DNA from: Takakia lepidozioides
Lineage: Eukaryota > Plantae > Bryophyta
DNA: 64,000 nt
Direction of reading: 5' to 3'
NCBI GenBank assembly: GCA_030704615.1
Contig: CM060731.1
Coordinates: 48,422,001 to 48,486,000, forward strand
Shown: positions 1,292-64,000 of the stretch, piece by piece
How positions within the stretch are numbered: the stretch's first letter is position 1
Layout: every line of letters starts with the position of its first letter
Made by a program: the position numbers and the translations under genes
The notes under the pieces: generated by a model
Told to the model about the DNA's origin: nothing
Database searches by the model: none
What the model saw: only the letters and a program-made list of their open reading frames with translations

Positions 1292-4200
1292 TCATCCATC
1301 CAGTCTCAGCTTGGCATGGATTGAGGCATCCTGTGGATCCCAGCGAAGGAGACATTTTGCGACACGTTCTGCCACCCCCACGTTCCCATGCTTTCTGCAG
1401 GCACCAAGCAAGGCCCCCCACACCCCAACACCTGGGTCGATTGGCATTTTGTTGATGAAGTTCTCTGCCTCACACAATCGCCCTGCACGGCCAAGAAGGT
1501 CCACCATGCAGCCAAAATGCTCAACTGTAGGAGTGAGGCCATGATCTCGACTCATGGAATCAAAGTAGTGATAGCCTTCATCCACCAGGCCCAAATGGCT
1601 ACATGCAGAGAGAATATTTATGAAGGTGATACTATCTGGCTTCAAGCCTTCATGTTGCAATTGTTCGAATAGTTGGAGGACCTCCCTGCCACAACCATGT
1701 TGCCCATATCCTGCGATCATGGCACTCCAAGATACCACATCTCGTTTGACCATATTGTCAAACACTTGACCCGCATCCTTCATGCTCCCGCATTTTACAT
1801 ACATATTAACAAGAGCATTCTCCAAATTTGCGTGTGGAGCTATTCCAGCCTTGATGATGTCAGCATGCACCTCTCTGCCCTTTTCAAGGATAGCCAAGCT
1901 GGAACACGCGTTGAGAACGCCAATGAATGTGACCTTATCAGGTGTCAACCCTTCCTGTATCATTTGCTCATAGATCACAAAAGCCTCCCTGCTACACCCA
2001 TGCTGTGCATATCCTGCGATCATTGTGCTCCATGTGAAAACATTTCGTCGTGTCATACTGTCAAACACTTGCCGTGCATCCTTTGTGCTCCCGCATTTGG
2101 CATACATGTGGACAAGAGTAGTTTCTAAATCAATATATGATGCAATTCCAGCCTTCATGACATCAGCATGGACCTCTTTGCCCTTTTCCAGGGCTCCAAG
2201 GTGGGCACACATGTTGAGCACACACATGAATGTGACCTTGTCAGGTATCAAACCTTCCTTTCTCATTTGCTCGTACATCTCAAAAGCCTCCCTACCACAC
2301 CCATGTTGAGCATATCCTGCAATCATAATATTCCATGAGACAACATCTTGTTCAGCCATATTGTCAAACACTTGACGTGCATCCTCTAGGCTCCCACATT
2401 TAGCATACATGTCAACAAGGGTATTCTCCATAGAAACATCTGGCTCAATTCCAGCTTTCATGATGTCAGCATGGACCTTTTTGCCCTTTTCCAGAGCTCC
2501 TAGCCTGGCACACACATTGAGAACACACATGAATGTGACTCTGTTGGGCATCACCCCTGCCTGCATCATTTGCTCAAAAGTTTCAAAAGCCTCCAAAACA
2601 CACGCATGCTGAGCATATCCTCCTATCATTACATTCCATGAGACCAAATCTCGTTGAGCCATGCTGTCAAACACTTGACATGCATCCTTTAAGCTCCCGC
2701 ATTTGACATACATGTCCACAAGGGTGGTCTGCAGAATGATATCTGGCATAATTTCAGCTTGGACAATATCAGCATGGACCTGGTTGCCCTTTCCAAGGGC
2801 TCCTAGGCTGGCACAGGCATTGAGAACACAAAGGAATGTGATCTTGTCGGGTGTCACCCTTTCCGACATCATTAGCTCATACAGCTCAAAAGCGAGCCTG
2901 TAACAGCTGTGCTGAGCATATCCAGTGATCATCGCATTCCATGATACCACATCTTGTTCAGTCATACTGTCGAATACTTGCCTTGCATCCTCTATGCTCC
3001 CACATTTTGCATACATGTCAACCAGGGTATTCCCCAGTCTGATATCTGGCTCAATTCCAGCTGCCACGATGTGAGAATGGACATCTTCACCCAGTTTCAG
3101 GGCTCCTAGGCTGGCACATGCATTGAGAACATAAATGAAGGTGATCTTGTTGGGCATCACCCCTTCACATATCATTTGCTCATACAGCTTGAAAGCTTGC
3201 ATAGCACACCCATGCTGAGAGTATCCTGCAATCATTGTACTCCATGAAACCACATTTCGTTCAGCCATATCGTTAAAGACTTCACAAGCATCCTTAATGC
3301 TCCCACATTTGGCGTACATGTGGACAAGGGTATTCTCTAAATTGATGTCTGGGGCAATTCCAAATTTCCTGATGTCAGCATGGGCCTGTTTGCCCTTTTC
3401 CAGAAATCCTAGGCTGGCACATACATGGAGAAGACAAGTATATGTGACACTGTTAGGTGTCACCTCTTCCCGAATCATTTGCTCATACATCTCGAAAGCT
3501 TCCCTACCACATCCTGCCATTATGGCGTTCCATGAGACTACATTTTGTTTAGCCATATTGTCAAACACATGACGTGCATCTGGCATGCTCCCACACTTGG
3601 CATACATGTCAATTAAAGTATTCTCCAGCATGATATCTGGTACAATTCCAGATTTAATGATGTCGGCATGCACTTCTTTACCCTTTTCCAGGGCTCCTAG
3701 GCTGGCACACGCATTAAGAACACAAATAAATGTGACCTTGTTGGGCATCACCTGTTCCCGTAGCATCTGCCCATAGATCTCGACAGCCTCCCTACAGCAC
3801 CCCTGCTGAACATATCCTGTGATCATCGCATTCCAAGAGACGATATCTCGTTGTGCCATATTGTCGAACACTCGACGTGCATCTTTCACACTCCCACATT
3901 TGGCATACATGTCAGCAAGAGCAGTCTCCAGGATCATATCTGTCGCAATTCCAGCTTTTAGAATATCAGCATGGACCTCTTTGCCCTTCTGCAGGGTACC
4001 TAGGCTGGCACATGCTTTGAGAAGGCAAATGAAGGTGACATTGTTGGGTGTCACCCCTTCCTGTCTCATTTGCTGATAAATCTCAAAAGCCTCCCTCCCA
4101 CGTCCATGCTTTGTATATCCTGACATCATTATTGTGCATGTAAAGACATCTCGTTTAGGCATATTGTCAAACACTTGGCGTGCATCCACCACGCTCCCAC

Positions 4201-4537
4201 ACTTGGCATACATGTTCACAAGGGTGTTGAGTACCAAGAAGTTTGGATTGAATCCAGTTTGTATAATGTGGGCATGCACCTGCTTTCCTATTTCTAGGTC
4301 TTTACTTTTGATGCACTGCCTCAAGAGAGAGATGTAAGTACTGGAGTCTGCTAAAATGTCTCGATGGTCCAAAATGTGCAGCACCTCTTTAGATCGTTGT
4401 GCCTTACATAGTGTGCTTACATCCTCACAAGTGCCAGAAGAGTTCTTGTTGACTCCTTCTCCTGCTCCACTTTTAGAAACAGTGGCCATGCTGGAAGTGC
4501 CTGGTATAAACAATGATGCTTGATTCAGCCCTGCCAT
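1292..4537 (-). CDS. PLS-class pentatricopeptide repeat protein with E domain; C-terminal DYW domain disrupted
   Basis: 1081-aa ORF with nine ~101-aa P-L-S triplets (MY[AV]KCGS repeated 9 times), then P2-L2-S2 and the E motif HFGCMVDLLGRAG...VWGALLGAC. The frame ends inside E2. A phase-1 acceptor (cag|GGCTGAATC, ~4530) matches the paralogue, so the true start may be in an upstream exon. Confidence 0.93.
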   Translation of the reverse strand: MAGLNQASLFIPGTSSMATVSKSGAGEGVNKNSSGTCEDVSTLCKAQRSKEVLHILDHRDILADSSTYISLLRQCIKSKDLEIGKQVHAHIIQTGFNPNFLVLNTLVNMYAKCGSVVDARQVFDNMPKRDVFTCTIMMSGYTKHGRGREAFEIYQQMRQEGVTPNNVTFICLLKACASLGTLQKGKEVHADILKAGIATDMILETALADMYAKCGSVKDARRVFDNMAQRDIVSWNAMITGYVQQGCCREAVEIYGQMLREQVMPNKVTFICVLNACASLGALEKGKEVHADIIKSGIVPDIMLENTLIDMYAKCGSMPDARHVFDNMAKQNVVSWNAIMAGCGREAFEMYEQMIREEVTPNSVTYTCLLHVCASLGFLEKGKQAHADIRKFGIAPDINLENTLVHMYAKCGSIKDACEVFNDMAERNVVSWSTMIAGYSQHGCAMQAFKLYEQMICEGVMPNKITFIYVLNACASLGALKLGEDVHSHIVAAGIEPDIRLGNTLVDMYAKCGSIEDARQVFDSMTEQDVVSWNAMITGYAQHSCYRLAFELYELMMSERVTPDKITFLCVLNACASLGALGKGNQVHADIVQAEIMPDIILQTTLVDMYVKCGSLKDACQVFDSMAQRDLVSWNVMIGGYAQHACVLEAFETFEQMMQAGVMPNRVTFMCVLNVCARLGALEKGKKVHADIMKAGIEPDVSMENTLVDMYAKCGSLEDARQVFDNMAEQDVVSWNIMIAGYAQHGCGREAFEMYEQMRKEGLIPDKVTFMCVLNMCAHLGALEKGKEVHADVMKAGIASYIDLETTLVHMYAKCGSTKDARQVFDSMTRRNVFTWSTMIAGYAQHGCSREAFVIYEQMIQEGLTPDKVTFIGVLNACSSLAILEKGREVHADIIKAGIAPHANLENALVNMYVKCGSMKDAGQVFDNMVKRDVVSWSAMIAGYGQHGCGREVLQLFEQLQHEGLKPDSITFINILSACSHLGLVDEGYHYFDSMSRDHGLTPTVEHFGCMVDLLGRAGRLCEAENFINKMPIDPGVGVWGALLGACRKHGNVGVAERVAKCLLRWDPQDASIHAKLRLDG

Positions 4538-6078: not shown

Positions 6079-9000
6079 ATGGCAGAGAGCCTGGGCGCTC
6101 TCCTGAGCGTGCAGGGTGAGGCCAAACCTGATAAGGCCCTGTCTTCTCCCTGCGCTGAACGGGTGGGAGGCAACACCCCATGCAGCAGATTCACAGGCCC
6201 GTCTGTGGAGCTGGGGTGGGCGTCCACCTGTGCGATGCCAGGCCTGGGACCCTTGCAAATCATGGCTGTGACGTCTCTCCAGCAGCCTCCAGGGATACTG
6301 AACAAAGGTACACACCTGCATTCTTTTGGGTCTCCAAGGTGTGTGCACGAAAAGCAATCCAGGCTGCAATTTGTCTTACGCCCATGCTTGCAGAAACAGT
6401 TTGGTCTAAGAAGACAGCATGATGACTGTCTGTGCCGAGATCTTTCTTTGAAGTATCAAGGAGCTTTGAGATATATTATAGTGTGATGTAGTATAGTGTA
6501 CAGGTTTGGGATAAGAGTGTTCAGTTATGCAGGATTGCAGGGTTGAATCAGACACAGATGTGTGTTGGACATGAGACTGGGAGCAGGGGTAGCACGTATA
6601 CCATTGCAACTACTTTCGACAGCGGGCCAGGAGAGGTAGCCAACAAGAACTCTTTCGGTACTTGTTGGGATGTGAGAACACTATGTAAGGCAGGACGACT
6701 GAAAGAGGCTCTGCACATTTTGAACCAAGGAGGCATTCGCGCGGACGCCAGTACTTATATCTGTCTCTTACAGGAGTGCATCAACAAGAAGGGTCTAGCA
6801 GAGGGGAAACAGGTGCACGCTCACATCATTCACAGTGGATTTAAGCCGGAAGTCTTTCTACTCAACACCCTTGTCAACATGTATGCTAAGTGCAAGAGCA
6901 TGGTGGATGCACGCCAAATGTTTGATGCCATGCCTGAAAGAGATACATTTACGTGGACAATAATGATAGCAGGATATACCAAGCACGGGAGTAGTAGAGA
7001 GGCTTTAAAGATCTACGAACGCCTGCAACGGGAAGGGGTGACGCCTAGCAGGGTAACATTCCTTTGCATTCTCAATGCGTGTGCCCACCTAGGAGCCCTG
7101 GAAAAGGGGAAGGAGGTCCATGCTGAAATCATTAAAGCTGGAATGGAGTCACATGTGACCCTACAGAATGCCCTTGTTGACATGTATGCAAAATGTGGGA
7201 GCATAAAAGGTGCGTGTCAAGTGTTTGAAAATATGGCTCAACGAGATGTGGTCTCATGGAGCGCGATGATCGCAGGGTATGCTCATAATGGGTGTGGTAA
7301 GGAGGCTTTGGATATCTACGAGGAAATGCAACGGGAAGGGGTGACCCCCAACAGGGTTACTTTCATTTGCGTTCTCAATGGGTGTGCCAGTCTGGGAGCC
7401 CTGGACAGAGGGAAACAGGTCCATGCTGACATCATCAAAGCTGGAATTGTATCATATGTAAATTTAGAGAATACGCTTGTCGACATGTATGCCAAATGTG
7501 GGAGCCCGAAGGATGCGCGTGAAGTGTTTGACAACATGCTTAAGCGAGATGTGGTCTCATGGAGTGCGATGATTACAGGATATGCCCAGCATGGGTGTGG
7601 GAGGGAGGCTTTCGAGGTTTATGAGCAAATGCAACTGAAAGGGGTGACACCTGACAGGGTCACGTTCACTTGCCTTCTTAATGCCTGTGCCAGCCTAGGA
7701 TCGCTTGAAAAGGGCAAAGAGCTCCATACTGACATCATCAAAGCTAGAATTGCCCCAGATATTGTTCTTGAGACTGCCCTGGCTGATATGTATGCAAAAT
7801 GTGGGAGCATGAAGGATGCATGCCAGGTGTTCGACAACATGGCACAACATAATGTGGTTTCATGGAGTGCAATGATAGCAGCATATGCTCAGCATGGGTG
7901 TGGAAAGGAGGCTTTTGGAATCTATGAGCAAATGCAATGTCGAGGCGTGACACCAGACAGGGTAACATTCATTTGCATTCTTAATGCCTGTGCCAGTCTA
8001 GGAGCTCTGGAAAAAGGGAAAGACGTCCATTCTGACATCATCAAGTCTGGAGTTGCATCATACATTAACTTGGACAATAGCCTTGTTAACATGTATGCCA
8101 AATGCGGGAGCATGGAGGATGCGGATGAAGTATTCAACAGTATGGCTAAACGAGATCTTGTCTCATGGAATGCCATGATCGCAGGATGTGCTCAAAATGG
8201 CTATGCTAGGGAGGCCCTGCAACTATTTGAACAAATGCAACACGAAGGCTTGAAACCTAACAGTATCACTTTTACATCTCTTCTCTCTGCATGTAGCCAT
8301 GTGGGTTTTGTAGATGAAGGCTGTCATCATTTTGATTCCATGAGTGAGGATCATGGTCTCACTCCTACAATGGAGCATTTTGGCTGCATGGTGGACCTTC
8401 TTGGCCGTGCAGGGCGACTGGATGAGGCAGAGGAGTTCATTAACAAAATGCCAATCGAACCAGATGCTTCAGTGTGGGGGGCCTTGCTTGGTGCCTGTAG
8501 CCTTCATGGTGAGGTCAAGCTAGCTGAACTTGCGGCAAACTCCCTTGTTAAGTGCGACCCACAGGACCCTGCAGCTTACGTATTGCTATCAAACATCTAT
8601 GCTGCGTCTGGCAGGTGGGACGACAAAGCAAAGGTAAGGAAATTGATGGAAGACAGAGGTGTCAGAAAGGAGGCAGGGTGCAGCTCCATTGAGATAGACA
8701 ACCAGGTGCATACATTTTTTGTAGAAGACAAATTGCATCCACGTATTGAGGAAATCCATGCTGAGCTTAGGCGATTGTTTAAGCATATCAAGGAGGCTGG
8801 GTATGTGCCTGACACTCGCTTTGTATTACATGATTTGGAGGACGAGCAAAAGGAACTTTCTCTTTGCTACCACAGTGAGAGGTTGGCCATTGCTTTTGGG
8901 CTTATCAGCACACCCCCCAGGGCCCCTATACGTGTGATAAAGAACCTTAGGGTGTGTGGTGACTGCCATACTGCCACCAAGTTCATCTCAAAGATTGTTG

Positions 9001-13097: not shown

Positions 13098-15826
13098 CGC
13101 TCCTCGCCCCCTCTCTCTTCTCTCTCGCTCGTCCAAACTCTGGGTTTTGTGAACAGCTTCTGTTCCTGTGGATGATATTTGAGGACGACATTCGTTTATT
13201 TCCATACATGAACCCCTCGGGTTTCCATTCGGACCCTTGACGCTCTAGTGCTATGAAAAAGGAACCCTCACTCTTTTTCTTTTTTCTTGTATTGTTTTGT
13301 TTTTGTTTTTTAAGGGGATGAACCCTCACTCTTTTATAAGATGATCTTCTTCAAAAACAAAAGAAAAATATATATCTTTATATATTTAAAAATAGAGGAA
13401 TCTGCAATCCCCTTTTCTTTTCTTTTTTTATAAAAGGGATGAAGCCCATTTATTTTATTCAAGGTCCTGTGGGGCCATGAAGCATGCACACCAGATGCTG
13501 AGGGACGAACCCGAGTTTCTTTAACGAAGAGAGAGCCATCCATATGGATGATAAACCCTTTCCTGGTTATTTAAAAACAATTAATAAAAAAAATTAATAA
13601 AAAAGTAAAAAAGAAAAGTGAAGAAGAGAGTGCCATGAACCTTTGGTGGGCTCCCTCTCCTCTCCTAAGTATTCTCCATGGTAGAGGAAGCAAACAACAA
13701 TTCCCAGAAAACCAGCCCGAAAACAGGGCTGCACACAAATGTCAATGGTGGGACATTGAAATGGTCGGTCCTTGCTCACCGTGGCTATTGCAGAATCCCA
13801 CTGTGGGATGCAAGCTCGAATTACAGGACAGCTACATTTCAACACCGCGTGTCCTCCACATTTGGATGCTTCTTTCAAGGTTGGACATCATCAGTTTCCT
13901 CTGCAAGTTTCTTCCTTTCTTGACGTTTAGAGGTGTGGTATCAAAAGTGGTCACTCGGTGAATGCTGAATCTGAATGACGATACCAGCAGCATTTGACAT
14001 TCAGGTTTGATCACACACTGAATGGGCCCGGTATGACAAGTAGTTTCTATTGTACTTTTCTCTCCAAAATGAACGTGAATCTGACGACAGGTCAAAGACT
14101 CGAATACCGCACCTTCCTCTTCCAAGCTCACGAAATCAACTAGAAGGCCAGCTTCCTCATAATTCCACATACATCTTAATGGAAGACAAACGAGAGTGGT
14201 CTGTCTGTGGGCGATGTGAAGCAGATGGCAGTATCGTCATTACTCTCTTAGCTGCAAAGCCTCACCTGCAAACACCATCGAAAACTTCCAAAAGATCCAA
14301 CTCAAAGCCTACCCAGCTATAAGACATTTGCAGTGCCGAACATGAAGCCTGAGATCTCAATTGCTCGGTGGAGCTCTTCAAGCACAGACTGAAACCTTCG
14401 CACACCCTTAGGGCCCTTAGTGCAAAAATCACCCTCAAAACATTATCCCATAACGTTTGCCCGTATCGATGAAGAGTTCCAGTATAAAACCCAGGACTGC
14501 CACAACCGTTCTGAAGCCGCGTGTCCAGCACAAAGCGAACTATTCTTTCGCCTTTTACTAAAGAATACCGTGCGTTGAACACAGAAAGCGGCATACCCTA
14601 ATTTTTTGGCTGCCCCTCACGGGGCCCAACCAACAATACAACCTGGAAAGCAACTTCACATACTCGTAAAGTGTACCGTACCGGAAAATGTTGCTGGCGA
14701 CATTCATCAACGCCATCGACCATTGCCCAGTAATGGTATGATCTGTGCATCTACTTCCTCTATGTACATAGTGGTTTCGAACATGTCAGCACGACTACCT
14801 ACTCTTTTCTTAGTCGTAATTGCACCTATCATCCAAGTGGACTATAATCCAAAAGTGGAGAATTGTCATCCATGCAATGGCTAATTTTTACTATCATCTT
14901 GTCACATTCAGTCAAACTTATAGAATTGTGAATTCCTTAGCAACACTTGAAATCCTCATGTAAGCATTGCCATCACATCCGGACCAGCCAGGAAAAATCC
15001 CACCAAACAAGCTAAAAAATAATCAGTTCACCATCCGCCATCCTGTCCCGATGACCGCAAGTTTGTCGGTTCCGGAAGTTGATAAAGATTGTACCCATTT
15101 ACAAGAGCTGTAGGCTGGCAGAGCAGTGAAGAAATAGCCCGCAAATATTTTTTATCCATACCATACAAAACAATGGAACATCTGCACTCTAATTTCAGAA
15201 GTTTGTGGGCAAGCATTGCATGTTTCAGATTCTGCGGTGCCTATTTAGCCCAGTGGTAAGGCTGTAAATTGCTTCACTAGTGGTTGTGGGTTCAAATTAA
15301 GTGGGGATGGCGACCTCTGAGATCGTACGTTTGTGAAGTAGGAACATTGAAATTCATAGAGAGCTTCGAGAAGAGACGGCAATGGTGGAGATGCACGGCG
15401 CAAGGTCGGCCACGTGTGTGTTGATTATCCTCGTTGCTGGGCCCCTTTCAGAAGTCTCTCCCCCACGTGCACAGTTTGTGTGAGTATATTCAAGTGCAAG
15501 ACAGATTTTATATGCACGGACAAGTCTGTAGTCTGTACGCAGTCTCACTAGTATCGGAGGAGAGGGTGAGAAAAGACACAGACAGATGTGTAGCTGTACA
15601 CAGAATATCTGGACAGACTGTCGAGTTTGGAAAGCGCGGGCTGGCTCTCTATGTACAGTGCTTCAAGTGTCCGGTCTGTCCTCGTCTTTTTTCCTCTTCC
15701 GCTGTGGAATCAATTGTTGAGAAACTACAGGTAGAGATGAAGACGACTCGTGACCGTGTGGATAATAGCAGGTGGATCTGATCGTCACTTGCCATCTTCT
15801 TGCTCGGCTCGAGCTTTGACTCTGGG

Positions 15827-16186
15827 GCCGGATGCAGATCTAGCTGTTCGAAGTTTGTGTTCAGTATGATGATCACTAGTTTTATATCTGGTACAGCCTC
15901 ATGATAGATGTCAACGACGATTGCTGGACTCCTTTTCGATCCTCGTCCCTGGAAGAGAATTGGGACATACGAGGCAGAGAGTTCGTTAAGGTCGACAGGT
16001 GCCGGATGCAGATCTAGCTGTTCGAAGTTTGTGTTCAGTATGATGCTCACTAGTTTTATATCTGGTACAGCCTCATGATAGATTGTCAGTGATTCGTGTC
16101 AACGACGGTTGCTGGACTCCTTTTCGATCCTCGTCCCTGGAAGAGAATTGGGACATACGAGGCAGAGAGTTCGTTAAGGTCGACAG
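15827..16186. repeat. Two-copy tandem duplication of ~175 bp
   Basis: GCCGGATGCAGATCTAGCTG...AAGGTCGACAG occurs at ~15827 and ~16001. The second copy has a short insertion. Confidence 0.9.
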
Positions 16187-16740
16187 TTGCAATTCTCTTG
16201 GACACCTCATCGAATACATAGCTTCAGTTGTGTAACTTCTCTCCGAATTAGGTAGCGGGCCACCAATTCAGGCTGGAGTTTGCCCTTATCATGATCAGGA
16301 ATTGGCACCCGTCAATCAAGAAAACATGAAAAGCTGCAGATCCAACTAGGCATCAGAATTTCGTCCTGGAGAGGCTCAATGGTGTCCTGGAAAACGTCAT
16401 GTTGATTATTTCAGTGTTTTTGATTCAAGATTACTTCCGGTAAATCAGCGGGGGGCCTTTCCTGGTGTCCAATCACAAGTTATTCAGACTGAGTTTACTG
16501 CAAGCATGACAATCTTGAGCATTTGATCGGCTGTTGAGTCTTCATGAATAGACCTTTTGTGAGTGAAGTTGCAGGAATAGCAATTGATTGACGAGTTCAC
16601 GACTCAGACTCAGGCTACATACGCCTTTCCGGATATTGTCTGGGGCAGAAGAACAAGCCTAGAGAACTTGAGGACGCTTGTGATTCTGGACGGTGGATTG
16701 CAAGAGAACCTGTACAGCTACGACACGTAAAGACAGGCTG

Positions 16741-23900: not shown

Positions 23901-24294
23901 ACCCCCCCTGGGGCATGTAGATAGGATTCCTGGCTGCGTGCATCTAGCAGAGACTGTACTGATTGGCATTGTTTGTTCTGGCTGATTTATGGACATCTCT
24001 GAAAAGCTTAGTCCCCGGGATCACTTCCATTAGCAGACTCCAAAGAAAACCGAATTGTTCTGGCTGATTTATGGACATCTCTGAAAAGCTTAGTCCCCGG
24101 GATCACTTCCATTAGCAGACTCCAAAGAAAACCGAATTGTAATTTGTTCATGAGAGTTGAGCCTCTGCAAAGTTGCGGCCTTTTTTCTGGGTGTACTTAC
24201 ATTGTTGATTTTGCTGGTTTTGCAGACAAAGAACTCAAGTGAAAGAGAGCGTAGAGAGGAGGAACGCCGCAAGAAGAGGAGCAGTAGTCAGTAG
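20937..24294 (+). CDS. BI-1: Bax inhibitor-1 (TMBIM6 family); 6 exons (~20937-21044, 21774-21923, 22596-22688, 23094-23280, 23632-23787, 24226-24294)
   Basis: MEYASSFFEG..W.YGSLKNF..IS..VQHHLQR|VY.TL; LARRREYLFLGG; DTQMIIERA..GDFDYVKHAL.LF.DF.A.FVR.L.I; basic C-terminal tail KNSSERERREEERRKKR. Confidence 0.94.
23973..24139. repeat. Two-copy ~82-bp tandem duplication in the last BI-1 intron
   Basis: TTGTTCTGGCTGATTTATGGACATC...AAACCGAATTG occurs twice back to back. Confidence 0.9.
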
Positions 24295-38397: not shown

Positions 38398-38916
38398 ACT
38401 CTGATAACAGGGAAAAACAGGCTGAAATGTGTTGAAGAAGGTACCTTCATTAGCAGTCCCTTGTTCTATCTATTGCGCTGCTGCCGCTGCTATTTCCAGT
38501 TGACCATCTACTCACATTGTCCCACCACTGACTGGGGTCAGAAAAGTATTAATTCCTTGAAAGCTTCTCTCCATCTCTGTTATCTTTTTTTAGGTACTGT
38601 CATGCTACCACCTCGGCAGTAACTTGCAAAGTCACTCCAGAGCACCGCAGATCCACCCAACGAGCTAACTTACAAAATTCAATACATATGCTTCAGGGCT
38701 GAGTCTGATGAGAGGGAAAAACAGGCTGAAACAGGTCAAACCAGAAGGTGCCCTCAGGCTGAAATACGTTGAAGAAGGTACCTTTCATCAACAGTGCCTT
38801 GCTCTATCAATTGCGCTGTTGCCGCTGCTGTTTCCAGTTGACCATCCACCCACATTGTCCCACCATTGACTGGGGTCAGAAAAGTGTCTCATTCCAAAGC
38901 TTCTCTTCATCTCTGT
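38398..38916. repeat. ~180-bp diverged direct repeat inside the P-like element
   Basis: GGGAAAAACAGGCTGAAA...GTTGAAGAAGGTACC...GACTGGGGTCAGAAAAGT...CATCTCTGT at ~38410 and ~38712. Confidence 0.8.
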
Positions 38917-48054: not shown

Positions 48055-48345
48055 GTCACAACGAGGCTGAAGACGAGGATAATTAAGATGCAAATTTCTA
48101 TAACTTTCCACCTGTCATTTTTATGTCTTCATCAAGGACTAGGGATCTCCAGTGGACATCACATTCCATATTGACATGCACTTAGCTTTTTTATAGTCTG
48201 CTTTCTGAGTGTCTTAATACCAGGTACTAACGAGGAGTCTTTAATTTAAATACTTGTTTGTCCGTTTCAATGAATCTTCCATAATATTTGTTTCTTCATT
48301 TTATTTTATTTTCTGCCCTACTAACACATACTAAGTTCTAGCCAT

Positions 48346-48925
48346 AATTGTTTGTCCATTTGTACCTTAAACCCAAACCCAAAACCCATGCCCTAAACCC
48401 TTAGCCTTACCCTAAACCAACCTTACTGTACTACCCTACTTACACCCCAAACCTTATTCTACTACCATGTTACGTCTTTCCAATGTTTCATGCTCTTTTA
48501 ATAATTTTTTTTGTTGGATAAGGTACAATAGAGTAGCGAGTGTGAGTCTTCCATATTTGTTTGTCCATTTGTACCCTAAATCCAAACCCTGTACTCTTAC
48601 CTTACCGTAAACCCAAAACCTTGTGGTACCACCCTAGTTACACCCCAACCTTATTATACTACCCTGTTATCTCTTTCTAATGTTTCATGCTCTTTTAATA
48701 TTTTCTTTTGTTGGATAAAGTTCGATAGAGTGGTTACATGGATATAAAATTTCCCAAACATTATTAGTTTCAACGAGTGCAAGTCTTCCATATTCCAAAA
48801 TCCAAACCCTAAACCCTTACCCTTACCGTAAACCCAAACCTTATTGTACTTCTCTAGTTACACCCCAAATCTTATTGTACTACCCTGCTACCTCTTCCCA
48901 ATGTGTCATGCTCTTTTAATATTTT
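48346..48925. repeat. Three diverged ~200-240-bp tandem units containing telomere-like CCCTAAA/CCCAAA motifs
   Basis: AAACCC..CTTACC..TAAACC...TTACACCCCAA.CCTTATT.TACTACC.TG...CATGCTCTTTTAATA occurs three times. Confidence 0.75.
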
Positions 48926-53160: not shown

Positions 53161-53320
53161 TTGTGATGTGGGTTGAACATAACTTATAACATTCAATGAT
53201 GCGGTTTTTGTGGACGTCATGAGTTATGGTACTGAAAGTAAAACAAGATCATTTAAAGAGCCTTTTTGTGTATACTGGGTGACAAGAATCATGGACACAT
53301 GTCTGCTCGAAACCTTCTGA
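53161..53320. repeat. ~160-bp dispersed copy of the sequence just downstream of PAL (57125-57286)
   Basis: TTGTGATGTGGG...CATTCAATGATGCGG...GTGGACGTCATGAGTT...CATTTAAAGAGCC...GACAAGAAT.ATGGACA...GCTCGAAA at both sites. Confidence 0.85.
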
Positions 53321-54396: not shown

Positions 54397-55799
54397 ATGT
54401 GGCCATTTGTACCTGGTCCAGCTTTCATGCCCGTTGCTTGGCTACGGTCCGCCAACCTGCTGCTACTGCTGATTTTGTTGTCTATGAGCGATTGGGTCTC
54501 AGTTAAAGGTAAGCTTCAGTCTCCTCTCCTAGACGGCACCTGGGTGATTTGTTTGTTCAGCTGGCTTCGATAGGTAGTGTCTCTTGAATACACCAAGTCT
54601 AGTGCGCACTGCGGACCTAATTCTTGATGCACCTCGAACAGTTTTCGTCATGTGTTTCCACCATGTCATTTCTCCACGTTAAAGGGCTTTGAAATCCGAG
54701 CATGCTTTGTCATAAAGTTTGATATGATATATTCCCATCTGATTGCTCACTTGAGGCTTTCCGAACTTTAAAGAGAGCAATGAAACTTGGTTCCTATTTC
54801 ACAGAGCATATATATTTGTGCAGGTGGTTCTACTATTGGAGTCTCCTACGGGAGAGAGGGGGATAATCTTCCATCGCCGCACAAGTAGTCCAACTACTCG
54901 AATCTTTACAGGTGCAGAACGTCAGAATCTATGACACAGACGGAGGAGTACTTGGAGCATTTGCGGGGATTGACGTCTCCATAACAATGCTGAACCAGGA
55001 TATTCCAAATATCGCTTCCAGTGAAGGTGCGGCACAAAACTGGGTTAGCACCAACTTGCAGCCGTACATCCCTGCAACTAAGATCAGCTTGATTGCAGTC
55101 GGAATCGAGATATTGACTAGCGATGATGGGATAGCGTCGCAGCTGGTACCAGCAATGCAGAATTTGCACAGTGCTCTAGTATCTGCAGGTTTGGATGGGA
55201 GCATTAAAATCTCGACTACGCATGCTTTCAATGTGCTGCAGACCTCATACCCTCCATCTGCAGGAGCCTTTCTGAGCAGCTATGCTACATCGGTCATGCA
55301 GCCTCTCTTAGGCTTTTTGGCTGAAACACAGTCGGTGTTCCTAGTTAACGTTTACCCGTTTTTCTGCTACACATACAACTCCGCAACTATAGATATAAAC
55401 TACGCGCTCTTCAATCCAAACGCCCCCACAGTTACAGATCAAGGCCGAACGTACAACAACTTGTTTGATGCACAGATTGACGCATTAATCTCTGCCATGA
55501 CAACCCTTGGTTATGGGGATATACCTATGGTGGTCACGGAGTCTGGGTGGCCTTCTGTCGGTGACCCGGACCAGGTGGGTGCCAGTTTGGCAAACGCACA
55601 AACCTACATCAACAACCTTGTGAAGCACGTTCTCGCAAATCCACCGCTTGGCACCCCTCTGAGACCTGGAGTGGCAATTCAGACTTACATATTTGCAGTC
55701 TTCAACGAAGACCAAAAGCCTGGTGCCACCAGTGAGCGCAACTGGGGTCTTTATTATCCCGACATGACACCAGTGTACACCGCGAATTTGTCCGTTTGA
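54397..55799 (+). pseudogene. GH17 glucan endo-1,3-beta-glucosidase with a 1-bp frameshift (~54879); exon 1 ends 54508, exon 2 starts 54824
   Basis: Signal peptide exon; IGVSYGREGDNLPSP then a frameshift into QVVQLL...VRIYD; NVYPFF; YNNLFDAQID; nucleophile VVTESGWPS; YIFAVFNEDQKPG.TSERNWGL. The acid/base motif reads VGIE instead of VGNE. Confidence 0.85.
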
Positions 55800-57094: not shown

Positions 57095-57486
57095 ATCATC
57101 ATATTGAGTTTGTTACTTGTAAAATTGTGATGTGGGTGGAATAGAACTTATCACATTCAATGATGCGGAGGATGATTTTTGTGGACGTCATGAGTTCTGG
57201 TGAAAGTAAAACAGGGTCATTTAAAGAGCCCTTTTGTGTATACTGCGTGACAAGAATTATGGACATGTTTGCTCGAAAGCTTTCTGTGAGGAGACGGTGA
57301 ATGACTAGTTTAGGGAATTGTTGCTACTTACAGCTCAAATGAAGAGCCTCTAGGTAGATGCATGTACATCTTTCCTTATGTTCTACTTCAGCGGTTGCTC
57401 AATAAATGCATATATGATGCACATGTCGGAAGTCAAGTTAAAAATTCCGAATCCCTGTGACGATCTACTATCTACTGAAATCCGCC

Positions 57487-59667
57487 TTAGCAGCGCTGGG
57501 AAAAAGGGCCGGGTGTCCCAGTCCAACCGTCAACGCATTTGAGAAGAGGATCCACAAGCTTGCCTTCGGAGATGGCATTATACACCTTCTCAATCTCTTG
57601 ACCAGGAGACACAGTCCTCAAGCCTGACAGCAACTGGGTCCCTAATTCTGACCTCACAAATTTGTAGAGAGGGTATGTCCTGCAGTCTTCAATCCGGTTT
57701 GGCACTGCCGAATACCCCTTGTTATCGTACGACTCCCGGACCAAAGGTACAGCAATGTTCAGGCGCGTCTTCAACTCCTCTTCAAATATTGCGATCCTGT
57801 GGAACACTGATGTAGTCTCCGATTTTTCATTCTTGGGGTTCTGGAGCGCATGACTCACCAAGACTTCCCTTAGTTTCTGCATCAAGGGGTAAGTTTCACT
57901 GCTGGCGTCATCGATGTAGCTGAATACAGGCTGCCGATCCACCAGGCTGAGAAGGTCCTTCTCGCAGAACCGTGATGGCAAAAGTTCGCCGTTACTGCAT
58001 GTGAAGAGCGTCTTCTTGGCGACCTGGGACACAATTTGCTTCACTGCCGTCTGCATCGTCTCCTCGATGTGGCGAAGGTCTACTGCCTGGCATAGACCCA
58101 CCAAGAAAGTGGAGCTCATAAGCTTCAGAATCTCAATAGATTCCTCGGTCTTTCTTGCAGACACTAGACCCAGTGAGTTGACATCCTGGTTGTGCTGCTC
58201 CGCGCTTTGCACGTGGGTGGTCACTGGGTTGGCCAAGTAGTTCAACTCCGAGAGGTATGAAGCCATGGCGATCTCCCCGCCCTTCATTCCGTAGTCCAGA
58301 CTTGGGTTAGGTCCTCCACTGAGGTTTGAAGGAAGCCCATTGTTGTAATAGTCGTTTACCAGCTCAGAGAACTGTGCAAACATGAGCTTCCCAATCGCAG
58401 CAACGGCCAACCGCATGTTGTCCATAGAGACTCCAATGGGGGTTCCCTGGAAATTCCCGCCATGAAGGGCCCTGTCGCCGGCAGCATCGATGATTGGGTT
58501 GTCGTTGACAGAGTTGATTTCTCTTTGAATGGCATGTGTGGCATTGCGAATCACCTCCACCTGTGGGCCCAGCCATTGTGGGGAAGTCCGTAGCGCATAT
58601 CGATCCTGCTTGGGTTTCTTCAGGGGGTCGGTCTCATGCAATTTTGCTGCTGCCTTCATGTACGAGCTTCCATCGAGCACCCACTCCATAATGGCAGCCG
58701 CCTCCATCTGCCCTGGGTGGTGCTTCAGTTTGTGCGTCAAGGGATCAGCAAACTCGGGCTTTCCTTGCATCACCTCACAGAACAGGGCCGAAAGAACCTC
58801 AGCCAGTAGGACCATCACATTGGCGTCAAAGCAGACAGTGGATGCCAAGGCTGACCCCACCGCTGTTCCATTGACAATGGCGAGGCCTTCCTTGGGCTGC
58901 AATTCAAAAGGTTTCTCGACCCCGGCCAGTCTCAGAGCTTCCAAGGCTGACACTTCCTGTCCGTCCTCGGTGACAGCTCTGGAGTTGGGCCTGGCAGTAA
59001 GTAGTCCCGCGATGTAAGATAAGGGAACAAGGTCTCCAGAAGCGGTGACGGTCCCTCGGAGTGGCAACTTGGGTGTGACATTTGCATTCAAAAGCTTTTC
59101 CATGGCTTCCAGGATCTCCCAACGAATGCCAGAGAATCCCTGCATTAACGTGTTTGTGCGCACGAGCATGGCTGCCCGCGTGGTGCACGCTGGGAGGGTG
59201 TTGCCCTTGCCCAAAACTCCCGCATTCAGAAACCTAATGAGCTCTCTCTGGAGCTCCACCCCTTGCTGTGTACGCCGGTGAGAGGTGGCTCCGAAACCAG
59301 TTGTGACGCCATAGATATCCCCACCGTTCATGATCTTCTGGAGAACCCAGTTGGAGCTCTCGTCCACTCGATTCTTGGCATTGGCGGTATCCAGCACCAC
59401 TCTCACCTCTGGTCGGCGGGCCACGGCTGCCACTTGAGCAACCGTCAAGGTCACCCCTTCAATGGCTACTTCGGTTGCGTCATAGAATGTTTTCACCATA
59501 TCTTTAACCTCGTCCAGGTGATTGCCTTGCAGGGCTGAGGCTGCTCGCCCCCAGTTCAGAGGGTCAGCAAGCTGCACCTTTGTGCTAAAGGATTCCAAAC
59601 TAGCCTCGTGCGCAGCTTTGATGCCACTGCCATTGACGCTCACCCGAGCTCCGTGGGCCGTCACCAT
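57487..59667 (-). CDS. PAL: Phenylalanine ammonia-lyase, intronless, 726 aa
   Basis: DPLNW; [15 protein letters not shown]; ELIRFLNAG (Phe at the specificity position, so PAL rather than PTAL); MIO triad TASGDL; [12 protein letters not shown]; NDNP; HGGNFQG; EQHNQDVNS. Confidence 0.98.
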
Positions 59668-59985: not shown

Positions 59986-61593
59986 AGCAGTGCACATAAG
60001 AGCTAGTCATGTGGGACCCAGGGCGCTGATACGAAGCTGGCTGGCAGGCTCCAATACATAGGCAGTCCACGGCTGCTTTGCGACTCGCCATAGCTCAAAT
60101 CTGCACGCGGCCTTACTTGACCAGGTCACGCAAAGTTGAAGAACTGACCAGTATGTGATAGAAAACATATATATAATTTTCACCATCTGAAGCGGATCTC
60201 ACGAGTGAAGTGTTGATCAGCTCAGCAGCTCAGCAGCCTCTCGAGAATATGAGCAGACCATGTTGACCGGCTTCTCTCCACAATATGTGGAGCCACAACA
60301 CACGTTGCTAGTGAGGCGAGCTGGGAAACGCGCTGCCAAATGTGAGCACCACCTCTTTGACTATTTGAAAACCGTCCAAAGCCAACTACATACACTTCTT
60401 TGACTGAAGCATGGAAGATGAGGAGCACGTTGACAATTGAGTCAAATGGGGAATATGTTTTAAATATTTAGTTGATCTATGGAAGTGGAAAACTGTCCAA
60501 TTTGAAAACAGAACTTCGGTCATGTGTTGTACCTGGCTGTTGTTTTTGCTCAAGAAATTTGAACATGCGAAGACAAGTCATCTGATCTGTAATAAGTGAC
60601 ATCAATGGAGGTCTAGAGTCTAGAGTCTCTCTTGGACAGGGAGTGACTATAAGAAATTAACAAGGTATCAGCATAGTAAAAGAAGCCTAGGCTGCATGTA
60701 TACTGTCCGTATATGTCAATAGTAAAATGATCAAAATCTTGTTGGATGGTCTGCATCCACAGGATTGAACTGTCTTAATGATTCAATAATCGTGGGGGGA
60801 GGGTGCATAGGTATCGTGGGATGCGCTCATTGCGGGAGAGAATGATGAAACGTTTCGACCGAGGATTGAGCAAGAAGTCGTAGAGCTCGTCCTGATTGTC
60901 ATATGTTGTATTACAGAGAAGCAGCAGCAAGAGACATGCAAGTTACGTACGAAGAGATTATGGATGTTGCATTTAATCGAATTCATGAGGAAGCTGCTAT
61001 GATCTAGATAGGCATAAATCTTTAGGGCCCCTAAACTCTTATACCTAAGATTTGCATTATATATATACGCTTTATCATGTTTGGCGTTTTACTCGAGACA
61101 GTTTGCTTCAAGCGCTCTGAGTCAGTAGAAAAATACATTCCACTGATCCATACATATAAGATACCGCCCTTGTCGGCCTTATGTAGTTGTAACTTTTTCC
61201 TTGAAATTTGAGACACTACGATGTGGTGTCTAAGATGTAACTAGTGTTAACGTAGAGTGAAAGCTACGTACAGATTGCATCACATCGTGGCTCTTTGTGA
61301 TATGTGGTGTCCTGCCTAGTGTATCGGTCTAGTTGCTGATGATACGGACTACATGGAGCTGCACCACCTTGTATGGAATATGAATAGAGCTGGCGATTCG
61401 GTGGCCGGTTCCCAGGACGAGAAGTTGGATGTCGGATCCCAAGTCTCCTTGGATTGCGATATAATGGAGTACCCAACTGAACATTTGAGCACACTGGATG
61501 CTGAGAGCGATCATTGCCATGGAGGCAAAAAGCGTAGTGACTCATACATTGTACAAGCTGCTGAACAATATCCTCAACGGGTGATTGACATTG

Positions 61594-61957
61594 TGTTGGA
61601 AAACCACTGGCGTGTGGTCGGGCTAGGGATTGAACCTAGGACCTCCCCCATTCCGGTGGGGTGCTCTACCACTGAACTACCCGTCCCGTTCTGTTCTCAA
61701 AGTGTCGTGCAAGGGCTATAACCTTGACACTCCAACACTCCCCCTCAAGGCATAGCCCTTATAGCTAATGCCCACCCGTTCTGACCACCGCCCCAACCTT
61801 GGCTCTGATACCATGTTGGAAAACCACTGGCGTGTGGTCGGGCTAGGGATTGAACCTAGGACCTCCCCCATTCCGGTGGGGTGCTTTTTTACTGAGCTAC
61901 CCGTCCCGTTCTGTTCTCAAAGTGTCGTGCAAGGGCTATAACCTTGACACTCCAACA
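61594..61957 (-). mobile_element. TRIM with tRNA-containing LTRs (Helenus-like): LTR 61814-61957, PBS, 76-bp internal region, PPT, LTR 61594-61737
   Basis: Two 144-bp TGTTGGA...TCCAACA repeats, 139/144 identical. tRNA-iMet PBS TGGTATCAGAGCC directly follows the 5' LTR. PPT GAGGGGGAG precedes the 3' LTR. Confidence 0.92.
61615..61686 (-). tRNA. tRNA-derived cloverleaf inside the LTR (pseudo-tRNA, identity unassignable); second copy at 61835-61906
   Basis: GGACGGG-TA-GTTC-AGTGGTA-GAGC-A-CCCCA-CCGGAAT-GGGGG-AGGTC-CTAGG-TTCAATC-CCTAG-CCCGACC-A. Pol III A and B boxes are intact; there is one mismatch each in the acceptor and anticodon stems. Confidence 0.75.
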
Positions 61958-61977
61958 CTCCCCCTTGGTATCAGAGC

Positions 61978-64000
61978 AACAAGCATCCACGTTTCATTTT
62001 TGTGTAACGAGTCAATTTCTTCCTTCATTGCTAGCTCCCACTTAGCTCGATCAGGAGACATCATCGCCTCCTCATACCGTTTTGGCTCCTCTGGTAATGG
62101 TATGTATTCAGTTATTCCAGCAAACGTAGGGTAATTACTCTCCCACTCGCCGAATGTCTGTGGTGGCCGTCGAGATCGACGTACTTCTGTTCCCTGACTT
62201 TGCAAGCTTGGTGCAACCCGCTCAGGCCCTGTGTTTGCTGCATAAATTTCGCCTTCATCCATGGCAATAGGTAGATCCACTACTAGTTGAAGCTCAGGAT
62301 GCTCATTATGTTGGTCAATCGTATTCCCCTCATAATTTTGTACTTCTGGAGCCATTTTGTCTCCCACTCCCTCAAGTACCATAGTGCATGTGTTAGGTCT
62401 GCTCATCATTTCTTCGATGGGTGAAGAATTACGGTTACCCTTCTCATCTACTAACACATCACGGCTGATGACTATGTGCTGCTGCTCAATATCCCATAGC
62501 CGATACGCCTTAGATTCCACACTGTAACCAAGAAATATGCACTTTTTGCTCTTGGCATCCAATTTTTTTCTCAACTCTTTGGGTACATGTGAATATGCCA
62601 TGCTACCAAACACTCGTAGATGGCTGATGTCAGGTTTCTTCCCATTCCAGGCCTCCAAAGGTGTTTTCCCATTCAACACCCTGGTTCCCGTTCGATTTAG
62701 GGTGTATGCAGCTGTAGTGGCAGCTTCTGCCCATAAATTAGGACTGAGACCTTTTGCTTGCAGCATACATCTAACTCTTTCAAGCAGAGTCCTATTGTCC
62801 CTTTCGATGACACCATTTTGCTCTGGGGAATATGGCACTGTAAGTTCCTGCCGAATTCCATTTTCTTCAAGGAAAGTCTTAAATTTTGCGCTCAAGAATT
62901 CTCCTCTTCTGTCGCTTCTAAGCTTTCTCACTGCATGTCCTGTCTCTATCTCTGATTCCACACACAGCTGCTTGAGAACTTCTCCTTTTGTTTTCATGCA
63001 ATACAAGATCCTATAGCTGCTATAATCATCTTTAAACATGACAAAATGTTTGGAACCTCCATGCAAGTCTACATTCATTGTACACACATCAGCATGGTAG
63101 AACTCTCCAGGAGTCTGAACCCTCTCACGTTCTTCATTTACTGGAAACGCAACTCTGTGATTCTTGCCCATAGCACAACCTTCACAGAACTCCAGATCTG
63201 CATTAGGGTTCAGTATTTTCATACCATCGACGATTTGTGTTTTCTCCATTTGTTTAATCATGTCGACACTAATGTGTCCAAGTCGATCATGCCACGTTTG
63301 AAGACTTGCTCCCCCAATTGTCACTGCCCACATTTGCTTGAATATTATCCGTCGACAATACCATGTTTGCTTGCAGAGATTCTCCCGTAATCACTTTGAT
63401 TTGCAGTTTCCAAAGGTTTCCCTCTCTCACTCCAGTCATCATAAGAGGTCCCCTTCCCTGATTTGCATACAGCTTACAAGTACGCTTATCATAGATGACG
63501 ATGTAATCTCTGTCTACAGCCTTCGCTACTGAGAACAGATTCTTTCTGAGGTCAGGTACAAACAACACGTTGTGTATTGTTCCCTTTTTCCACTCACTTC
63601 CTGCTAGGGTTAGGATATCTATATCCCCTATTCCACTTGCCCATACTGTAACATCAGTGGCAACTTGTACTCCCCAACGATGAGATTCAATCTTCTTAAG
63701 ATTTTTGAACCATTGCATCTTGTTGGTCATGTGCTCAGATGCAGCACTGTCCGAGTACCAGGATATATCGTCTTCATCGCAAACTTTCTCTCCAATTGAC
63801 GTGTTGTTGTACACTGCTGCATTAGCATTGCTAATATGTACAATCTTTACCAGATCATTGACAATGTTCTGATCAGTGTTTCTTCGTTGTATCACTGAGC
63901 CATCATCGACACGCTCTCTTTCTTCATGATGAAATGCAGTGGCAACATAGGCATCACTCATCTTAATGGATTCCACCATGTTACCAGCGATACTCTTCGT
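61978..64000 (-). mobile_element. Ty1/copia internal region (PR, GAG-pre-integrase, integrase), truncated at the start of RT; continues beyond the window
   Basis: PR WYSDSAASEHMT; WHDRLGH...CEGC..GK; HADVC; LRSD..GEF; PEQNGVIER.NRTL; LRVFGS.AY.HVPK..R.KLD; EP..YEEA...W..AM.EEI.SL..N.TW. Frameshift near 63300. Confidence 0.93.

Follow-up and report, generated by a model that had tools for sequence, protein, structure and literature searches.

The locus at positions 61594–61957 of the window (the whole stretch of moss DNA that was analyzed, 64,000 nt) contains two closely spaced tRNA-like sequences. It raises the question of whether these are genes of the host or parts of a mobile element and, in the latter case, which polymerase would transcribe such an element and which proteins would copy it.

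Anatomy of the Element

Self-comparison of the window delineated a 364-bp noncoding unit with the LTR-PBS-PPT-LTR layout on the minus strand (Table 1). Both direct repeats have TG...CA ends, and they are identical at 139 of 144 positions. In the minus-strand reading, the interior opens with the PBS TGGTATCAGAGC, which abuts the LTR without a spacer and which we take to be of the tRNA-iMet type, and closes with AGGGGGAG, a purine tract that reaches up to the next LTR, again without a spacer. Direct repeats, PBS, and PPT being in register, the 364-bp unit with 144-bp LTRs outlined in a preliminary description of this DNA stands as proposed. No retroelement ORF was found inside the unit, and no second copy of the element was detected by self-BLAST within the window; the pattern running from the B box to the PBS has a single occurrence in the window, versus none across 100 shuffles.

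Table 1. Features of the element and of the adjoining sequence, in window positions
Feature	Position	Strand	Basis
5' LTR, 144 bp, TG...CA	61814..61957	-	repeat comparison
3' LTR, 144 bp	61594..61737	-	repeat comparison
PBS TGGTATCAGAGC, abutting 5' LTR; presumably tRNA-iMet type	61802..61813	-	
Noncoding interior, 76 bp	61738..61813	-	
PPT octamer AGGGGGAG, abutting 3' LTR	61738..61745	-	
5' LTR tRNA-like module; A box ~61889-61899, GG replaced (differences 61886-61890); B box ~61846-61856	61835..61906	-	ARAGORN, Rfam
3' LTR tRNA-like module; A and B boxes intact, noncanonical anticodon loop	61615..61686	-	ARAGORN, Rfam
5' LTR T4 run, 12 nt past module; predicted leaky Pol III terminator	61820..61823	-	function predicted
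3' LTR T4 run; predicted terminator of unit-length RNA	61600..61603	-	function predicted
Left arm of inverted repeat, bordering PPT	61745..61760	-	pairing vs. shuffles
Right arm of PPT-flanking inverted repeat, within U3	61711..61727	-	pairing vs. shuffles
Extra PPT octamer before 5' LTR; exactly 8 bases in common with internal PPT	61958..61965	-	
Inverted 12-nt PBS copy; last 6 nt (61972-61977) also Copia	61966..61977	+	
Disrupted Copia pol (broken off at first RT residues) with protease-region domain, frameshift near 63290-63390, and integrase; continues past window	61972..64000	-	
Low-copy host repeat, interrupted by element right after 61593	61236..61593	+	contigs with loose ends behind 61595

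Each LTR contains, from its position 52 and in the sense orientation of the element, a 72-nt tRNA-like module. Across the whole window, ARAGORN called only two tRNA-like genes, both in these LTRs on the minus strand, and Rfam family RF00005 (gathering score 29) matched the 3' LTR module with 51.9 bits (E = 7.2e-10) and the 5' LTR module with 44.1 bits (E = 9.8e-8). Cloverleaf pairing is formed at 19/21 and 18/21 positions in the two modules; the anticodon loop is broken and noncanonical, lacking U33, and an acceptor mismatch is present. In the 5' LTR, the conserved GG of the A box is gone, and four of the five differences between the LTRs fall within 5 nt there. The TRGCY part of the A box (TRGCY/YGG) reads TAGCT in the family majority, the canonical base at position 61676 being retained in most contigs, and TAGTT in the 3' LTR of this copy, the 5' LTR having lost YGG. 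Hence, the cloverleaf with A and B boxes that the preliminary description had placed in each LTR, in sense orientation, is recovered by ARAGORN and Rfam in both, except that the 5' A box is damaged.

Complementarity between the PBS and the 3' end of the module itself extends over four contiguous bases only, which rules out self-priming by the LTR module. The sense strand further carries a single T4 run per LTR, 12 nt past the module, and no other T4; a single T4 landed in that trailer in 406 of 20,000 shuffles. Judged from these features, the module is likely a promoter and neither a working tRNA nor the primer.

A Dispersed Multicopy Family

Contigs from sequencing runs were aligned to the window (10 runs listed, seven with the stretch or part of it; four studies). 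In run X1, summed depth was 21,000–96,000 per bin over the element versus about 170–1,040 on the flanks, with single-copy-looking contigs at a depth of 57–78; because summed depth is not copy number, the 350–600 copies given by the summed depth ratios are an inflated ceiling. In run X2, a 41-nt LTR contig had a depth of 1,559, whereas contigs with unique flanks were at 28–32; near-identical LTRs would thus number about 50 or more. Among the matches listed for X1 at the U5-side terminus, seven contigs exit at 61594 and six at 61813 with disagreeing flanks (flank agreement of 0.42 and 0.51, respectively), and the U3-side terminus is followed by five distinct flank 5-mers. Runs X1, X2, X4, X6, and X7 agree in showing a contrast in depth and flanks that diverge precisely at the termini. 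The element is thus real, multicopy, and gene-less, and it represents a dispersed family. A duplicated pair of host tRNA genes or pseudogenes, or an assembly artifact, would fit the tRNA calls by ARAGORN and Rfam in both modules, but it is refuted by the anatomy, with TG...CA ends, PBS, and PPT all in register and an anticodon assigned by ARAGORN to neither module, and by the dispersed flanks, the LTR–interior joints also being spanned by contigs in four runs from four studies, so that its probability is negligible.

No target site duplication (TSD) surrounds the copy at 61594–61957, which is flanked by CATTG on the left and CTCCC on the right and has a rearranged 5' end. Among 10 left–right flank pairs of other copies, a single match (TTCAA/TTCAA) was encountered, for which the chance expectation is about 1%; since it joins unlinked contigs from different runs and was spotted after the fact, it is a mere hint of a 5-bp TSD. 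The preliminary description had made its reading depend on other copies with TSDs: other copies are in fact numerous, their flanks diverging exactly where the LTRs end, and TSDs are absent from this copy and faintly indicated elsewhere. The two LTRs of this copy share a minority variant at 61705/61925, which, together with their near-identity, is what recent synthesis from a single template would produce. Pattern scans for relatives returned none in viral contigs, metagenome contigs, and prokaryote genomes, collections that hold hardly any plant DNA and are uninformative on distribution.

Relationship to Helenus

The preliminary description had noted that tRNA-bearing TRIMs were named Helenus by Kojima, and Kojima 2024 (PMC10886601) indeed uses this name for TRIMs with tRNA-derived LTRs. 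Helenus elements (TRIMp3) of fungi and animals are described there as noncoding units of less than 1 kb with the LTR-PBS-PPT-LTR layout and tRNA-like LTR sequences that bear a TRGCY/YGG A box and a GGTTC B box and do not serve as the primer, all of which applies to the moss element. It is noncoding and, at 364 bp with two 144-bp LTRs, well under the TRIM limit of 1000 bp; its PBS and PPT lie at the ends of the interior; both LTRs score above the Rfam gathering threshold; the module is noncomplementary to the PBS and, to judge by its sequence, nonfunctional as a tRNA; and the family is interspersed and multicopy, as seen from the depth contrast and distinct flanks. The element therefore falls within the published definition of Helenus and adds a new host group, not a new kind of element. 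The LTRs are not derived from 5S rRNA, the hallmark of Cassandra and Ajax, with no 5S rRNA match in 61000–62500 up to E = 1. Cassandra likewise has a Pol III gene within its LTRs and forms tandem arrays, but that gene is 5S rRNA rather than tRNA, the elements measure 565–860 bp, and Pol III transcription has been demonstrated (PMC10886601), whereas in the moss element it is predicted.

Other Helenus families differ from the moss element in several respects. According to PMC10886601, priming in fungal families is mostly from anticodon loops, animal families are tied to Gypsy and have 4-bp TSDs, and plant and fungal families have 5-bp TSDs. The only plant family in the consulted parts of that paper is Helenus-1_SMo of the lycophyte Selaginella moellendorffii, with a 120-bp LTR, an 85-bp interior, and a 5-bp TSD, and no moss appears in its Table 1. 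Compared with this family, the moss LTR (144 bp) is longer and the interior (76 bp) shorter, and U3 and interior cannot be aligned by eye. Similarity to the Selaginella consensus thus does not extend over the whole length, being confined by eye to the module, LTR ends, PBS, and PPT; families in Kojima 2024 were clustered at 75% identity and 75% coverage. The suggestion that the class is known and the family perhaps new agrees with these differences, as far as the families in the paper go, Repbase lying outside the comparison. A search outside Repbase and subscription journals found no report of a moss Helenus, and the 48-genome TRIM survey of Gao 2016, in the part of its text available, gives no TRIM for the moss Physcomitrella.

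Several segments do match the Selaginella family. By eye and without gaps, the 72-nt modules are identical at 55 of 72 positions (with the family-majority A-box base), and the last 10 LTR bases, including T4, are the same, the TTTTCCAACA end being common to both. The PPT octamer is also the same, the iMet-type PBS agrees at 11 of 12 positions, and both elements have CACCGG in the broken anticodon arm and an inverted repeat flanking the PPT. Four stem pairs (5:67, 28:40, 29:39, and 50:62) are changed on both sides between the two modules and still pair. The module of a bivalve Helenus, however, matches that of the moss at 48 of 72 positions by eye, which is the background level, so that 55/72 alone is no proof of descent, and a double capture of related host tRNAs would likewise yield paired stem changes. 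On balance, we lean toward common descent of the moss and Selaginella elements.

A Copia-Like Inverted Repeat around the PPT

The last 16 nt of the interior can pair with U3 bases 11–27, leaving the PPT and the LTR start in the loop. The pairing energy of −20.4 kcal/mol was equaled by none of 1000 shuffles and the alignment score was reached by 14 of 5000, although the entire hairpin region has just modest stability, equaled in 27 of 500 shuffles. In the predicted fold of the unit RNA, local hairpins outcompete the PPT-flanking stem and the cloverleaf alike: the acceptor and T stems of the latter have near-zero probability, and only four interior–U3 pairs exceed 0.2 because of this competition. 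Two further pairings in the fold were discarded, namely, that of the 5' half of the interior with the 3' end of the module and U5 in the minimum-energy fold, considered as a shield against tRNA processing (matched by 118 of 1000 shuffles, i.e., chance), and a T-arm palindrome pairing between the two modules, which is not conserved in the Selaginella family.

The arm-PPT-arm layout has been described for Copia elements, along with a proposed 8-base PPT primer (Bousios 2010, PMC2829016). In Sireviruses and classic Copia, as in the moss element, an 8-nt PPT adjoins the left arm, and the right arm is situated a few bases inside the 3' LTR, but the moss inverted repeat sits in a noncoding element of 364 bp. 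The Met PBS of Sireviruses contains the same 9-mer as the PBS of the element (PMC2829016). Taken together, the PBS, PPT, and hairpin would point to a Copia helper. A wider search for such PPT-flanking inverted repeats has been called for (Benachenhou 2013).

Arms of 8–15 bp flanking the PPT were also noticed by eye in the Selaginella Helenus consensus and, with differing sequences, in an unsystematic pick of 10 fungal Helenus families (supplement of PMC10886601); the words "hairpin" and "inverted" are absent from the main text of that paper.

Proposed Transcription and Replication

We regard it as probable that the element, a multicopy noncoding moss TRIM within the Helenus definition, is transcribed by Pol III from its module and copied and inserted by Copia proteins. 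In the proposed cycle, TFIIIC would read the A and B boxes of the 5' LTR, and Pol III would start near module position 1, pass the first T4, and stop at the second, so that the transcript would measure about 307 nt and carry a terminal repeat of 87 nt, which should be enough for strand transfer. Full termination at the 5' T4 would give no unit-length RNA. Host tRNA-iMet would then prime at the PBS and the 8-nt PPT would prime the second strand, with Copia RT and integrase acting in trans. The copy described here, having lost its 5' A box, is likely crippled.

Pol III transcription from the module is predicted from its sequence, and Kojima 2024 (PMC10886601) states that the role of Pol III in Helenus is without experimental validation, which leaves room for an ordinary Pol II-driven TRIM in which the remnant of a tRNA-derived SINE is a roleless LTR passenger. 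Runs X6 and X7 are guessed to be RNA, and the LTR contigs with 350–2,000 nt of flank found in RNA-guessed runs could be plain read-through. A Pol II promoter would, however, have to fit into a U3 of just 51 nt, and a roleless passenger is difficult to reconcile with the canonical A-box base at 61676 kept by the family majority or with the A and B boxes and T4 common to the Selaginella family, whose U3 and interior cannot be aligned by eye. We therefore consider the passenger explanation improbable.

As for expression, the DNA form and the one seen in X6 and X7 differ immediately upstream of about 61315; the former has an AG at this place, as splicing would give. Contigs of the LTR–interior–LTR form reach depths of 43 and 102 in these runs, compared with 6–9 for the neighboring exon-like flank, numbers from which strand, start site, and polymerase cannot be read.

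Junction with a Truncated Copia Element

Going upstream from the 5' LTR, one first encounters the PPT over precisely 8 bases, next an inverted PBS copy of precisely 12, and beyond these a Copia pol whose orientation matches that of the TRIM. The pol sequence, whose homologs are at most 51% identical to it among database proteins, breaks off at the first residues of RT, as placed by an alignment of seven of the 13 Copia homologs found. Contigs show uninterrupted Copia copies, at roughly 7–9 times the single-copy depth in X1 and X2, that continue through the break into RT; in these copies, the final 6 bases of the inverted PBS are also present, along with a PPT-like purine-rich stretch at the same place. 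Because 6 of the 12 "tRNA" bases and 3 bases at the other end also match uninterrupted Copia, diagnostic bases are few. The junction is spanned without differences by one 714-nt contig from run X4, whereas no junction-spanning contig is among those listed for X1, X2, and X5 (one of four runs bridged, in assemblies that drop rare branches). Run X4 is guessed to be DNA; yet its contig-size profile resembles that of X6 and X7, it lacks the uninterrupted Copia form, and it has a flank in common with X7. If X4 is RNA, the junction is transcribed.

The lengths of the two short segments equal those of the proposed Copia PPT primer (PMC2829016) and of the tRNA-iMet copy, Ty1/Ty3 RT copying 12 nt of tRNA-iMet (review PMC5371799). 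The junction could thus have formed during reverse transcription in a particle shared by the TRIM and Copia: the PPT primer would have been left unremoved and copied by RT at the 5' end, after which RT would have jumped to the primer tRNA or the PBS, copying 12 nt, and then to a Copia template at the 6-nt shared word. We give this origin an even chance.

A product of DNA repair, in which a TRIM or a three-LTR tandem inserted normally and its second PPT was later joined to a nearby Copia element through a deletion, with PBS-copied filler, accounts for the junction about as well and would imply no helper relationship. TRIM tandem arrays are common, the joint displays a 6-nt microhomology and coincides with the PPT-like purine-rich stretch of uninterrupted Copia copies, and the window lacks the second half of the empty target site. 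Repair would, by contrast, give no reason for the retention of exactly 8 PPT and 12 PBS bases, the lengths expected of two primers, or for the shared orientation of TRIM and Copia. We place the probability of repair just short of even.

In a further scenario, Helenus would be autonomous here, with 61814–61957 representing the 3' LTR of a truncated, once-autonomous Copia element, as might be supposed from the PPT preceding this LTR and the Copia pol upstream in the same sense. However, all nine contigs, from four runs, whose loose end lies behind the PPT at 61965 enter the TRIM interior, in assemblies that drop rare forms, and none continues into a Copia 3' region, the sole other exit being the junction contig; uninterrupted Copia copies moreover pass the break into RT, and an inverted PBS lies at the joint. 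This scenario is thus very improbable.

The observations could be combined into one account: a single tRNA-promoter TRIM would predate the split between bryophytes and vascular plants; paired changes would have kept its stems, selection thus acting on the RNA fold in addition to the A and B boxes; and the present copy would be a template-switching fossil from a Copia particle in which both primers are preserved and the helper is named. As a whole, this account appears less likely than not.

Neighboring Sequence in the Window

Other copies of the host repeat at 61236–61593 continue without the element, as judged from contigs. The copy in the window is decayed, at about 88% identity, and other copies resemble a spliced, expressed exon in X6 and X7. 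An ORF in the left flank had no Pfam match.

The window also contains a phenylalanine ammonia-lyase (PAL) gene as a single ORF (57487–59667, minus strand) and a glycosyl hydrolase family 17 ORF (54867–55799, plus strand). Among the matches listed, the PAL is 85–88% identical to most Sphagnum PALs, 81–85% to the closest from Ceratodon and Physcomitrium, and about 70–75% to those of liverworts, hornworts, lycophytes, and seed plants. In a quick tree of the window protein and 32 of the 120 listed matches, picked to cover the named lineages, it belongs to a clade of 20 rows (SH-aLRT 99) in which every named member is a moss, and it adjoins the Sphagnum groups rather than being nested inside them. 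The host is accordingly identified as a moss. Self-BLAST further revealed two arrays of about 303-bp units (1329–4464 and 6628–8566), 72–76% identical and in opposite orientation, which are possibly repeat-protein genes, as well as local tandem or dispersed duplications of 80–390 bp at 48342–48925, 15824–16190, 23973–24140, 38418–38916, and 53161–53316 with 57125–57282.

Implications

A many-copy moss family with near-identical LTRs extends Helenus to bryophytes and raises the question of whether plant Helenus elements are one very old lineage. In practical terms, moss Helenus will inflate tRNA gene counts in this genome, an effect shown for Helenus in rust fungi (Kojima 2024, PMC10886601). 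The helper link in that paper, as far as its text was available, comes from interior similarity only (Copia-9_PGr), and the helper of Cassandra is described there as still unknown. The junction, if formed during reverse transcription, would physically connect a Pol III TRIM with its helper, which would then be this Copia family. Mosses would also offer tractable hosts for work on Pol III in Helenus.
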